Positions 151 through 11,160 of a stretch of DNA of 11,566 bases are shown in pieces (the stretch's first letter is position 1; each line of letters opens with the position of its first letter). The position numbers and the translations under genes were made by a program. This DNA is from a virus. Where the stretch lies: the UHGV virus genome UHGV-1588268; one strand, written 5' to 3'. The notes below the pieces were generated by a model. The model had not been told where the DNA came from and did no database searches. It saw only the letters and a program-made list of their open reading frames with translations.

Positions 151-165
151 TTACCTTAAAGGTAT
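151..165. promoter_or_regulatory. Operator-like palindrome TTACCT-taa-AGGTAt upstream of the integrase gene, nested inside the inverted repeat GACGGTAT (144-151) / ATACCGTC (171-178)
   Basis: Seen in sequence: one mismatch to the TTACCT-N3-AGGTAA motif found in the other promoter regions; overlaps a possible -10 element TATACT (163-168). Confidence 0.4.
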
Positions 166-5404: not shown

Positions 5405-5481
5405 TTACCGTTGAGGTAATAATTATGCTTATTTGGTTTGGTGTCAATAGATATGAGTTAAAAAAATTACCCGTAAGGTAA
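5405..5481 (-). promoter_or_regulatory. Putative leftward early promoter with two operator palindromes
   Basis: Minus-strand -35 TTGACA (plus 5443-5448) and an A/T-rich -10 candidate (about 5418-5428), flanked by TTACCg-ttg-AGGTAA (5405-5419) and TTACCc-gta-AGGTAA (5467-5481). Confidence 0.45.
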
Positions 5482-5490
5482 TCTATCTGG

Positions 5491-5518
5491 CAATAAAAAA
5501 GCCGCCATGAGGCGGCTT
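5491..5518 (-). terminator. Rho-independent terminator downstream of the repressor gene
   Basis: 8-bp GC-rich stem AAGCCGCC (5499-5506) / GGCGGCTT (5511-5518), 4-nt loop; on the minus strand the hairpin is followed by a U-run (complement of 5491-5498). Confidence 0.7.
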
Positions 5519-5538: not shown

Positions 5539-6123
5539 TTATTGTTTGCTTTTTTCGTTCTGGTTGATGACAAATTCAATGTAACTTTCGATCTTTGCTT
5601 TCTCGGTTTCGGGTAACAATGCGTAGCGTGAGCGGTCATAGTTGATAGTCGCAGGGTCGTGCGGGTGAATCAGTAGTTCATATCCGTGACGCCCGAATGC
5701 GGATGCAACATTCTCCAGGGTGGAAATGGAAACGCTGACCTCATTGTTTAACAGGCGGCTGATTGTCACCTGGGCGACGCCGGATGCGCGGTGAAGTTTT
5801 CCCTGTGTTGAAAGGTCGCGGCTTTCGCTCATCCAGCGTTCCAGATTGTGAGCCGCCAGCTGACCTATATCGCTCGGGCCGACAGGCTGAAAACCCTCCT
5901 GAGAAAGCGAACGATCAATATCAAGCCAGTTACGGGGTTTATTGGCGGCAGCTTCAATTTTTCGTGCAACCTGGTCGCCGATAACCTTCTTGCCAAGAGC
6001 CCAGCGGTTTACCAGATTTGCCTGAGTTCCAAGTTTTTCTGCCATCCGCGTCTGAACACCATTGAATTCACGGTCGATCAAGTCGTTGAGATTTTGCCTG
6101 CGGACGTCCTGGATACTTTTCAT
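5539..6123 (-). CDS. Phage repressor candidate: tandem HTH (XRE/Cro-C1 type) DNA-binding protein, no S24 peptidase domain recognised
   Basis: 194 aa. Two HTH-like segments (QTRMAEKLGTQANLVNRWALGKK and KLHRASGVAQVTISRLLNNEVSVSISTLENVA). Divergent from a Cro-like gene with operator palindromes between them. C-terminal 45 aa show no Ala-Gly/Ser-Lys autocleavage signature. Confidence 0.75.
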   Translation of the reverse strand: MKSIQDVRRQNLNDLIDREFNGVQTRMAEKLGTQANLVNRWALGKKVIGDQVARKIEAAANKPRNWLDIDRSLSQEGFQPVGPSDIGQLAAHNLERWMSESRDLSTQGKLHRASGVAQVTISRLLNNEVSVSISTLENVASAFGRHGYELLIHPHDPATINYDRSRYALLPETEKAKIESYIEFVINQNEKSKQ

Positions 6124-6178
6124 TTTCTGGAAAATCGCCTCATATATGAATCAGTAGATGATTCAATTTAAAGCAATA

Positions 6179-6241
6179 TTACCCAACAGGTAAATGCACC
6201 TCATAGGTAACTATCCTTGATTTTTGTTACCTTATGGGTGA
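6179..6241. promoter_or_regulatory. Divergent immunity-region control region with three operator-like sites
   Basis: Sites TTACCc-aac-AGGTAA (6179-6193), gcACCT-cat-AGGTAA (6196-6210), TTACCT-tat-gGGTgA (6227-6241); candidate rightward -35 TTGATT (6217-6222) and -10 GAATAT (6240-6245) overlap the sites. Confidence 0.5.
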
Positions 6242-6277
6242 ATATTTATTATCTGAAATAAATATCAGGCAATAGCT

Positions 6278-6508
6278 ATGAGCGATAACGGACATTTCGA
6301 TTTCAAAAAGCACTGGCTTGCACTTACTCCGGATGAGCGTGAAGCCTTCGCACAGGAAGCCGGAACGACGAGTCACTATATCCAGACTCACTTAACAGGC
6401 AAGCGCAAAATGCCAGGTAAGGTATTGATGAATGGGCTTTTTAAAGCCTGTAAAACAAGACAATGGCTGCGCTCAAAAGCAGAACTGGCATACTTCTTCT
6501 ACTCATGA
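6278..6508 (+). CDS. Cro/YdaS-like small HTH regulator
   Basis: 76 aa, divergent from the repressor; EAFAQEAGTTSHYIQTHLTGKRKMP resembles the HTH and Gly-Lys-Arg turn of Cro/YdaS-family proteins. Confidence 0.65.
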   Translation: MSDNGHFDFKKHWLALTPDEREAFAQEAGTTSHYIQTHLTGKRKMPGKVLMNGLFKACKTRQWLRSKAELAYFFYS

Positions 6509-6563: not shown

Positions 6564-6578
6564 GTACCTCAAAGGTAA
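6564..6578. promoter_or_regulatory. Operator palindrome gTACCT-caa-AGGTAA between the cro terminator and the replication genes
   Basis: Seen in sequence; same motif family as the immunity-region sites. TTGATCAA (6592-6599) just downstream could be a -35 element. Confidence 0.45.
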
Positions 6579-8459: not shown

Positions 8460-8536
8460 TTACCTGTTAGGTAACAAAATATTATAAACTCTATTGATTT
8501 CATGTCTTATGTGGTTTTTAATTACCTCAGAGGTAA
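8460..8536. promoter_or_regulatory. Two perfect operator palindromes flanking a putative promoter upstream of the DUF1064-like gene
   Basis: TTACCT-gtt-AGGTAA (8460-8474) and TTACCT-cag-AGGTAA (8522-8536), the latter ending 3 nt before the ATG and containing the GAGG Shine-Dalgarno; TTGATT -35 candidate at 8494-8499. Confidence 0.5.
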
Positions 8537-8539
8537 ATC

Positions 8540-8884
8540 ATGAGAAAACAGATACAGGCTCTTGGTCGACTCAAAACAGGCCAGATGAACAAAACTGAAT
8601 CTGCGTATTGCCAGCACCTTGAGCTGCGTAAACGTGCAGGGGAAATCGCCTGGTATCGATTCGAGGGTATCAAGCTGCGGTTAGCTGACAACACGTTCTA
8701 TACGCCAGATTTCGCTGTGATGCTCGCCACCGGAGAGATGGAACTGCACGAAGTGAAAGGTTTCTGGACCGACGACGCCAGGGTGAAAACCAAAGTCGCC
8801 GCAGATCAGTATCCGTTCCGAATCATCGGGGTAACGGTTAAACCAAAGAAAGCAGGTGGTGGCTGGAACATCGAAGAGTTCTGA
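8540..8884 (+). CDS. DUF1064-like phage protein with PD-(D/E)xK nuclease signature
   Basis: 114 aa. YTPDFAV...ELHEVKG gives a D...E-x-K arrangement; size and context (after the replication genes) match DUF1064-type proteins. Family from memory. Confidence 0.7.
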   Translation: MRKQIQALGRLKTGQMNKTESAYCQHLELRKRAGEIAWYRFEGIKLRLADNTFYTPDFAVMLATGEMELHEVKGFWTDDARVKTKVAADQYPFRIIGVTVKPKKAGGGWNIEEF

Positions 8885-9593: not shown

Positions 9594-10288
9594 GCGAGAT
9601 TAACTATCAGGCTCTGCGACTGGCGGCAGAAAATGCAACACTAGGCGAATGGTGTACTGATGACTACCATGGAGTAATTGCCGATGCCGGACTGAACGCC
9701 AATTACTACATAGCATCATGCTCAGGACCGGATAATCGCGCCAATAAACGATTCATAGCCGCAGCCAATCCGGCTACCGTGCTGGCACTGCTGGATGAGA
9801 ACGAAAGCATGTGCCGCGACCTCATTGCTCGCAATGGTGAGATTGAAGGGCTTCGAAAACTGGTTGCTGAACTTGAGGAGACAAAATCAAAACTCAACGA
9901 GCAGCGTGAATATTACGAAGGTGTTATCTCGGATGGAAGTAAGCGTATTGCTGAACTGGAGAAAAGCGAAGAGCAACTCATCAGCGAGCGTGATCATGCT
10001 GAGTCTGCTTTAGCTGATATGTATTTTGCAGCAACCGGGGATAGGCCGGAGTGGAGCAACTTGTTCGGCTTTTCAGATGCTGTAGATGCCGTGGTTGACA
10101 GAATTGCTGATTTAGAAGCTAAACAGCCATCGCCAGTAGTACCGGAAGGACTGATTAAAGCGGTGCGTTTTTATGAGCAGGTAAAACGTGAGAACCCGCC
10201 AGTCGAAACCGGAGCATGGAAAGACGCTGTTGACTGGGTGCTCAAAGAGGCTTGCCCGGCTGTAAACATTGGCATCAAAGGAGAGTGA
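9590..10288 (+). CDS. Ead/Ea22-like family protein
   Basis: GTG start with AAGGAGG ribosome-binding site (the track's ATG at 9557 has none). N-terminus SEINYQALRLAAENATLGEW...CSGPDNRANKRFIAAANPATVLALLDENE matches my memory of Ea22-like prophage proteins; coiled-coil middle section. Confidence 0.6.
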   Translation: MSEINYQALRLAAENATLGEWCTDDYHGVIADAGLNANYYIASCSGPDNRANKRFIAAANPATVLALLDENESMCRDLIARNGEIEGLRKLVAELEETKSKLNEQREYYEGVISDGSKRIAELEKSEEQLISERDHAESALADMYFAATGDRPEWSNLFGFSDAVDAVVDRIADLEAKQPSPVVPEGLIKAVRFYEQVKRENPPVETGAWKDAVDWVLKEACPAVNIGIKGE

Positions 10289-10290
10289 GA

Positions 10291-10809
10291 GTGCAGATTT
10301 CACCGGTTACTCTTCGTGTTGCGAAGGCGTTTATATCCAGACATCACCGACACAATAAACCCCCGGTGGGGCATAAATTCAGCATTGGTCTGAGAAATGA
10401 TGCCGGAGAATTGATAGGTGTGGCGACAGCCGGTAGACCTGTTGCACGACATTTGGACGATGGATTAACGCTTGAAGTAAATCGCACATGTACCACAGGA
10501 GAACGCAACGCTAACAGCGCGCTTTATGGTGCTGTCTGGCGGGCAGCAAAGGCTATGGGTTATCAACGTTGTATTACGTACACCCAGGCAGATGAATCAG
10601 GAGCATCTCTTCGCGCAGCTGGTTTTGTTCGTGTGAAAGAGCTTCCTCCAAGAAAAAGCTGGGCGGAATCAAGCGTCGCCCTGCGGAGTAAACGCGATCC
10701 GGTCGGAAACGGTGGTGTTCCTCGTGTGCTCTGGGAAATCAGGAGAATGAGTACCACTGGCATTCGCATCAAAGGAGACGCAGGAGAACAAAACGATGAA
10801 AAACCGTAA
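10291..10809 (+). CDS. Conserved phage protein, GNAT-like acyltransferase fold suspected
   Basis: GTG start with AAAGGAGAG ribosome-binding site. Motifs RHHRHNKPPVGHKF, LIGVATAGRPVAR and the C-terminal SGASLRAAGF resemble GNAT acetyl-CoA-binding and motif-B regions. Function is inferred. Confidence 0.55.
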   Translation: MQISPVTLRVAKAFISRHHRHNKPPVGHKFSIGLRNDAGELIGVATAGRPVARHLDDGLTLEVNRTCTTGERNANSALYGAVWRAAKAMGYQRCITYTQADESGASLRAAGFVRVKELPPRKSWAESSVALRSKRDPVGNGGVPRVLWEIRRMSTTGIRIKGDAGEQNDEKP

Positions 10810-10972
10810 AGCAAAATTACTTCTTTTATCGCGTTCGACGGGGTACGAGAAGCTACCAATCAGCAATCACAAACGGGCGGTGATCGGCATGTTTGGTAGG
10901 GTGGTATTCGCATTTAACTATAAACCCACCGCGTCGCGGAACAGACGAGAGAAGGGGTACGCAGTGCGATGA
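10796..10972 (+). CDS. Putative small basic ORF (58 aa) beginning MKNRKAK
   Basis: Own translation: MKNRKAKLLLLSRSTGYEKLPISNHKRAVIGMFGRVVFAFNYKPTASRNRREKGYAVR. Start lies inside the 3' end of the preceding gene; stop overlaps the next ATG as ATGA. Below the track cutoff. Confidence 0.25.
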   Translation: MKNRKAKLLLLSRSTGYEKLPISNHKRAVIGMFGRVVFAFNYKPTASRNRREKGYAVR

Positions 10973-11160
10973 AAAACCGTAAGGCAAAGATGCTGATAGC
11001 AAAGCCGGGGCAGCGTATCCGTATCTCAAATCGGCTTGTTATTTACTATAGATATCTGGGTTTTAGGGGGTGTTCCTCTATTCGTTTTTACGGTGTCTGG
11101 CGAAACAGAAGCGCAGCACAAAACCGCTGGAAAAACCACTTTCGCACTAAAGGAGAGTGA
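10969..11160 (+). CDS. Putative small basic ORF (63 aa) beginning MKNRKAK
   Basis: Shares a 21-nt start region with the preceding small ORF (20 of 21 identical). Arg-rich. Stop lies within the ribosome-binding site of the next gene. Confidence 0.3.
   Translation: MKNRKAKMLIAKPGQRIRISNRLVIYYRYLGFRGCSSIRFYGVWRNRSAAQNRWKNHFRTKGE

Follow-up and report, generated by a model that had tools for sequence, protein, structure and literature searches.

A putative SPC32H-type immunity repressor with two helix-turn-helix folds and its operator sites in a phiV10-like prophage

Results

The left arm of a phiV10-like prophage

The DNA analysed here is a stretch of 11,566 nucleotides of the virus genome UHGV-1588268 (referred to as the window), which extends from attL to early genes only; its features are collected in Table 1. 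The DNA around the rep gene is 97-98% identical to that of the E. coli phages phiV10, ZX5, TL-2011b, and HEMP4. Positions 1-17 of the window are attgagtgggaatgatt, the att core reported for ZX5 at the 3' end of guaA, and since the window opens exactly with this sequence, its first position is taken to be the attL junction. A close relative, the XH992 prophage of E. coli, adjoins guaA with the gene order unchanged. Judged by these alignments, the window is the left arm of a Uetakevirus prophage of the phiV10 type and contains attL, int, recombination genes, rep, and replication genes. No record of the E. coli collection matched the window from end to end, the best coverage being 88%, and the prophage element is therefore mosaic.

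Some genes of the right-hand part of the window were also noted. A 185-aa ORF (10252-10809, plus strand), in a part of the window that is not common to phiV10 or TL-2011b, matches Mom-like DNA modification proteins (phrog_1384, E 3.5e-42); its match to Pfam Mom (E 1e-4) is below the cut-off. Two small plus-strand ORFs, 10796-10972 (58 aa) and 10969-11160 (63 aa), both begin with MKNRKAK and both match phrog_1380, a pattern that resembles the tandem duplication of one small gene.

Table 1. Features of the rep region and operator-type sites elsewhere in the window
Feature	Position	Strand	Remarks
Single operator-type site	151..165		TTACCTTAAAGGTAT; upstream of int
Left operator region	5405..5481		Two perfect sites, 5405-5419 and 5467-5481; 62 bp apart
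PL-like promoter	5447-5442, 5424-5419	-	TTGACA-17-AATTAT; 10/12 consensus matches
Intrinsic terminator	5499..5518	-	After rep stop; 8-bp stem, 6 GC pairs, then T run
rep	5539..6123	-	Putative immunity repressor of phiV10-like (Uetakevirus) prophage, 194 aa
C-terminal tail of rep product, residues 153-194	5542..5667	-	Counterpart of SPC32H Rep CAD (tetramerisation and Ant binding)
Second XRE HTH fold of rep product, residues 85-152	5668..5871	-	Five helices; counterpart of SPC32H Rep MDD
N-terminal HTH of rep product, residues 1-72	5908..6123	-	Predicted to read the operators; HTH helices 24-31 and 35-43
Right operator region	6179..6241		Three TTACC-N5-GGTAA sites between rep and the cro-position gene
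Right operator sites	6179-6193, 6196-6210, 6227-6241		0, 2, and 1 mismatches, respectively
PR-like sigma-70 promoter (putative)	6224..6252	+	TTGTTA-17-TATTAT; 9/12 consensus matches
cro-position gene	6278..6508	+	76 aa; divergent from rep
Single operator-type site	6564..6578		1 mismatch; past the terminator of the cro-position gene
Operator-type pair	8460..8536		Perfect sites 8460-8474 and 8522-8536, 62 bp apart; before the DUF1064/resolvase-like gene at 8540

Domains and relatives of the rep product

Two XRE-type HTH folds (residues ca. 20-60 and 85-152) and a 42-residue tail behind the second fold were found in the rep product, as a sequence-only reading of this DNA had claimed when it described two HTH segments and a short C-terminal tail. 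Pfam matched HTH_3 in two stretches, the best of which (residues 106-147, E 1.2e-9) scored above the gathering score, and a YdaS/Cro-type HTH at residues 21-61, while separate PHROG repressor families matched each half of the protein. An AlphaFold2 model, calculated with 37 homologues in the alignment (mean pLDDT 75.9), contains two helix bundles joined by a disordered linker: an N-terminal four-helix bundle (helices 4-19, 24-31, 35-43, and 50-59) and a canonical five-helix XRE bundle (85-100, 107-114, 118-125, 133-142, and 147-151). The tail is modelled with a long helix, 172-192. Both the HTH_3 score and the five-helix fold are those of the XRE / Cro-C1 HTH family. Among the 37 homologues, residues N36, R40, and W41 of the N-terminal recognition helix are invariant, the mean net charge of the N-terminal domain is +4.1, and the tail motif I160-x-Y162-D163...Y167...L170-P171...K175...F184 is invariant or nearly so.

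A tblastn search of the phage collection revealed a repressor 100% identical to the rep product in HEMP4 and repressors 99.5% identical in phiV10, ZX5, and other phages. Identity was 78% in the case of Enterobacter phage Tyrion, 45% for Klebsiella podophages, and 42.7% for SPC32H, SPN1S, and epsilon15, the SPC32H alignment covering 99% of the length. When the PDB was searched with phmmer, 5D50_A, named 'Repressor', was matched over residues 1-190 (E 3.5e-42), and 5D4Z, which contains residues 92-198 of Rep, was matched with E 3.6e-20; these are the structures of Rep from Salmonella phage SPC32H with its antirepressor Ant (5D50) and alone (5D4Z). SPC32H Rep has been described as a protein of three domains, of which the N-terminal one binds DNA, the middle one (MDD) dimerises, and the C-terminal one (CAD) is responsible for tetramerisation and Ant binding (PMC9986798). 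By domain, the rep product is 53% (N-terminal), 34% (MDD), and 50% (CAD) identical to SPC32H Rep, or 43% overall, and it shares with this protein both homology along the full length and the three-part architecture. The sequence-only reading had placed a repressor at the cI position; by homology, the protein there is the immunity repressor (Rep), a full-length member of the SPC32H Rep family, of a phiV10/ZX5-like Uetakevirus podovirus prophage.

The protein is, in effect, already known: a structure, an antirepressor, and an SOS link have been published for its family, and a near-identical copy was tested in ZX5. When this copy, ORF21, was overexpressed, free phage was abolished and the transcripts of endolysin and holin fell by more than 99.9%, and overexpression of an anti-repressor lowered lysogeny (PMC9782041). 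The ZX5 experiments used overexpression only, and the anti-repressor employed was a Bro-N fusion protein, not the small Ant.

One phage record calls the protein 'plasmid maintenance system antidote protein VapI', which raises the alternative that it serves not as the phage repressor but as the XRE-type antitoxin (HigA/VapI-like) in a toxin-antitoxin pair. NCBIfam profiles of HigA, HipB, and VapB do match weakly, as does Pfam YdaS_toxin (E 3e-4), but all of these matches are far under the curated cut-offs (18.7 bits versus 47.7 in the case of HigA, and 12.7 versus 79 in the case of HipB). There is also no adjacent toxin gene, the neighbours of rep being a terminator and the divergent cro-position gene, so that neither the scores nor the gene context are those of a HigA/VapI-type antitoxin. 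Together with the full-length homology to a solved phage repressor and the repression of lytic genes by the overexpressed ZX5 protein (PMC9782041), these observations make an antitoxin role highly improbable.

The rep product has no recognisable self-cleavage module

The cI position of rep, in an early region of lambdoid style (RecT, exonuclease, and O-like and P-like replication genes), and the SOS inducibility of phages of the phiV10 type would both be expected of a lambda cI/LexA-type repressor that undergoes RecA-stimulated self-cleavage and whose cleavage module has diverged past recognition. However, Peptidase_S24 of Pfam gave no match to the rep product at E<=1, and no Ala-Gly or Cys-Gly dipeptide occurs in any of the 194 residues; the protein thus lacks both the S24 domain and the cleavage site of LexA / lambda cI-type repressors, and the earlier statement that it carries no autocleavage module stands. 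The C-terminal half consists of an all-helical HTH fold and the 42-residue tail homologous to 5D4Z; because these fill it entirely, there is no room for a beta-rich S24 fold. SOS inducibility is, moreover, accounted for by a LexA box on the antirepressor gene of related phages, as described below. A hidden self-cleaving repressor is, in our view, barely tenable.

An antirepressor gene with a LexA box accompanies this type of repressor in related phages

The SPC32H ant gene (86 aa; KC911856, 19676-19936) lies far from rep, is divergent from the tail-spike gene, and has a LexA box, CTGTATGTTTATACAG, directly upstream. Orthologues of Ant were found by tblastn in 35 of the 36 phage records that contain a full-length Rep homologue, the sole exception being a 138-kb record; in these phages, ant codes for 85-86 aa and is located beside the tail-spike gene. 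Ant of SPC32H is 87-88% identical to that of the E. coli phages, whereas Rep is merely 43% identical. A consensus LexA box is present ca. 40 nt before the ant ATG in seven out of eight relatives examined (phiV10, HEMP4, TL-2011b, Tyrion, epsilon15, SPC32H, and the XH992 prophage), and the box of the eighth, a Klebsiella phage, is off by one base. An operator-type site is found ca. 94 nt upstream of ant in all eight. The ant gene is also present in the XH992 prophage, which matches the window at 97.6% identity in its left arm.

The window itself yielded no Ant homologue by tblastn (best E 3.7), and no antirepressor family (Bro-N, ANT, KilAC, or Tum) was matched by its other ORFs in Pfam or PHROGs. 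LexA boxes in the window were limited to matches with one mismatch, which occurred at the chance rate (5 versus 3.98 expected). These blank searches and the place of ant beside the tail-spike gene in relatives agree with the earlier suggestion that no antirepressor is encoded in the window and that it would lie elsewhere. The accompanying proposal, induction by an antirepressor or another route independent of RecA cleavage, gains support from the homology to SPC32H Rep and from the LexA-boxed ant of relatives with the same Rep. The rep product is most likely induced via an antirepressor encoded outside the window, and the UHGV-1588268 prophage itself presumably carries ant and behaves like its relatives. 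In several Salmonella prophages, LexA cleavage is described as leading to Ant synthesis and inactivation of the repressor (PMC7380047, citing Kim and Ryu 2013), and a DNA-damaging microcin induces prophages of the phiV10 species 21- to 47-fold (bioRxiv 10.64898/2026.05.26.727859).

Of 5426 complete E. coli genomes, 537 contained rep and 529 contained ant together with its promoter. The repressor gene is therefore very common, and not unusual.

Related phages also contain a larger gene with an Ant-like part. The product of ZX5 ORF4, the 'anti-repressor' (record L011, 2571-3266), is a fusion of Bro-N (residues 17-107) and a C-terminal Ant-like domain (150-223), which is 42% identical to the small Ant of ZX5 (E 1e-19). 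Bro-N::Ant-like genes were also observed in the XH992 prophage (L005, 34769-35479) and HEMP4 (L004, ca. 2533-2754). The small LexA-boxed Ant, encoded just upstream of the fusion gene, is annotated as hypothetical. With the fusion and the small Ant side by side, these phages therefore have two tandem Ant-type genes.

Operator sites around rep and elsewhere in the window

The motif TTACC-N5-GGTAA occurs in the window at eight sites with at most one mismatch, versus 0.17 expected. The centres of the three sites of the right operator region are located 63, 80, and 111 bp from the rep ATG, and those of both SPC32H and epsilon15 at 62, 79, and 109 bp; the layouts agree within 2 bp. The rightmost of these sites overlaps the PR-like promoter of the cro-position gene. 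On the other side of rep, the left operator pair flanks the leftward PL-like promoter, and SPC32H has three sites in the equivalent place. SPC32H-type operators, (A)TTACC-N5-GGTAA(T), are thus arranged around rep in the window. The epsilon15 record labels ATTACC-N5-GGTAAT sequences in syntenic locations as repressor binding sites, namely on the left side of rep, ahead of the terminase gene, next to ant, and behind the replication gene, the rep-cro spacer being unannotated. The half-site and the N-terminal recognition helix of the repressor are conserved together in phages of E. coli, Salmonella, Enterobacter, and Klebsiella. From the annotation and this conservation, we infer that Rep, and not the cro-position protein alone, binds the sites.

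The cro-position protein matched phrog_35, 'transcriptional repressor', with E 5.6e-13, and had no match in Pfam, the PDB, or NCBIfam; a Cro-like role is inferred from its position alone. Inspection of the rep-cro spacer by eye revealed two further palindromes, TCATATATGA near the rep start (6139-6150) and ATATTTAT-N8-ATAAATAT over the -10/start region of the PR-like promoter (6244-6267). These could be candidate sites for the cro-position protein or IHF.

The operator-type pair before the gene at 8540 has syntenic counterparts with equal 62-bp spacing in SPC32H (35972 and 36034) and the XH992 prophage. The right half of its second site (GAGGTAA) is also the Shine-Dalgarno sequence for the ATG at 8540. 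This distance of 62 bp, roughly six helical turns, is found again between the two left operator sites as well as in SPC32H and XH992, and would suit a single tetramer bridging two sites. The single site TTACCTTAAAGGTAT is identical and in the same place before int in SPC32H (L002, 26960) and XH992 (L005, 1572), which suggests either repressor control of int or a role of the site at attP.

The second HTH fold

Residues 85-194 of the rep product were searched against 1.8 billion representative proteins. Many proteins of 93-175 aa share the middle HTH as their only HTH, followed by a tail of the type I-x-Y-D...L-P...E-K; these single-HTH relatives fall in phrog_13326 and are 34-49% identical over ca. 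100 residues. They look like a family of mini-repressors with a tetramerisation-type tail. The likeliest origin of Rep is that a Cro-like N-terminal head was added to a complete mini-repressor, the old HTH becoming the dimerisation domain. A recent internal duplication as the source of the two HTHs was rejected, a BLASTP comparison giving no alignment at E<=100.

A 161-aa single-HTH protein related to the middle and C-terminal domains of Rep (L012, 4001-4486; GCA_000832305.1, CP010536.1) is encoded in a prophage-like region, where its gene diverges from a leftward operon whose small genes include HTH_39, DUF1376, and DpdA. The NCBIfam profile of RstR, from CTXphi, matched residues 106-192 of the rep product far below its cut-off (E 8e-4).

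The sequence-only reading had suggested that a monomer might read one palindromic operator with both of its HTHs. Both units could also read DNA if the middle HTH were a second head with a target of its own, in which case the tetramer would have eight heads. In sequence, the middle domain is canonical for an XRE HTH, and of the two it is the one that Pfam matches more strongly. Its homologues in phrog_13326 have no other HTH and carry a CAD-like tail, one of them being encoded in a prophage-like region at a divergent junction that resembles a switch, and Q107, Q118, and R123, at the usual DNA-contact positions of XRE proteins, are invariant in phiV10-type Reps and the single-HTH relatives. However, the equivalent domain of the solved SPC32H homologue is described as the one that dimerises, and it is the N-terminal domains that are credited with DNA binding. 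The middle 'recognition helix' is identical to that of SPC32H at two of eight positions, Q107 and Q118 being lost in SPC32H, and the charge of the domain is close to neutral, versus +4 for the N-terminal domain, although the single-HTH relatives are themselves only weakly basic. The two HTH domains of the rep product do not align with each other in BLASTP (E<=100); because they have no detectable mutual similarity, they would not read identical palindrome half-sites. Each operator is a 15-bp palindrome whose half-sites lie 10 bp apart. Sites of this kind are normally bound by two identical HTH heads, which speaks against a monomer that spans them with both of its HTHs.

We therefore consider it very unlikely that both HTH units read DNA. 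The narrower proposal, that the middle HTH of phiV10-type Reps dimerises and still contacts DNA, is also very doubtful. If it were true, the Rep tetramer would have eight HTH heads of two kinds, and Rep would be a Cro-like head fused to a complete mini-repressor with both heads active.

Discussion

The observations are best explained by a Rep/Ant switch of a phiV10-like prophage integrated at the 3' end of guaA, with a repressor of the SPC32H Rep family that is released by Ant and not cleaved; we put the probability of this explanation at about 0.85. It draws, from the present analysis, on homology, fold, domain layout, the absence of S24, the operator motif and its layout, and the LexA-boxed ant of relatives with the same Rep, and, from the literature on homologues, on repressor activity, tetramer binding, and Ant action. 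In the proposed switch, the N-terminal HTH of Rep would read DNA, the second XRE fold would dimerise, and the C-terminal element would tetramerise and dock Ant. Tetramers of Rep would occupy the 15-bp palindromes (A)TTACC-N5-GGTAA(T), three over the PR-like promoter, two flanking the PL-like promoter, and, elsewhere, the pair before the gene at 8540 and the single sites before int and after the cro-position gene, and this occupancy would keep lytic transcription off. Upon DNA damage, Rep would remain uncleaved, while LexA cleavage would derepress the small ant gene (85-86 aa), which is expected ca. 30 kb away, beside the tail-spike gene and outside the window. Ant would then bind the C-terminal part of Rep and bring it off DNA. 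Ant of the SPC32H type was reportedly found by Kim et al. in 2016 to bind the C-terminal domain without competing for the DNA-binding surface. In agreement with such binding, the mode of action of Ant has been described as conformational trapping (bioRxiv 2025.11.27.690993). SPC32H Rep is described as binding DNA in tetrameric form, with the members of each pair of DNA-binding domains supplied by different dimers, while two Rep dimers are bound by an Ant tetramer (PMC9638917).

The closest studied system is SPC32H Rep, to which the repressors of SPN1S and epsilon15 (gp38) are identical or nearly so. The likeness includes length, three-part layout, gene position and orientation, operator motif, a right operator region of three sites, and, in relatives, a LexA-boxed ant next to the tail-spike gene that is 87% identical. 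The differences are in host and phage species, in Q107, Q118, and R123 (kept in the rep product, partly lost in SPC32H), in the operator spacers, which are less A/T-rich in the case of the rep product, and in the number of left-hand operators (two versus three). The repressors of phiV10, vB_EcoP_ZX5 (ORF21), TL-2011b, and HEMP4 are 99-100% identical to the rep product and do not differ from it in substance; the guaA attachment core is common to these phages, and the rest of the early region of the window is mosaic relative to them. The phrog_13326 proteins share the middle HTH and the C-terminal tail motif but not the extra N-terminal HTH, and many have a basic low-complexity C-terminal extension; RstR of CTXphi, with its weak NCBIfam match, is a more distant likeness.

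With 186 CI/Tum, the Gifsy and Fels-2 repressors, P22 C2/Ant, and TP901-1 CI/MOR, the Rep/Ant system has a common logic, the removal of a non-cleaving repressor by a small protein, but the folds of those repressors and antirepressors are unrelated to Rep and Ant. In 186 and the Gifsy phages, the antirepressor gene is under LexA control (PMC7380047). Rco of the Bacillus plasmid pLS20 resembles Rep in its N-terminal HTH, its C-terminal strand-helix tetramerisation element (TetDloop), and its antirepressor (PMC9986798), but has no middle HTH-fold domain.

As the re-identification of a known repressor family, the finding itself adds little. The phiV10-like type of prophage is common, however, with rep in about one-tenth of complete E. 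coli genomes, and most records give no more specific names than 'helix-turn-helix domain-containing protein' for Rep and 'hypothetical protein' for the small Ant. Transfer of the Rep/Ant annotation would explain the induction of these prophages by DNA damage. Since Ant is 87% identical in phages whose Reps are 43% identical, and since the operator half-site is common to them, cross-induction, and possibly cross-immunity, among E. coli and Salmonella phages of the Rep/Ant type looks plausible.
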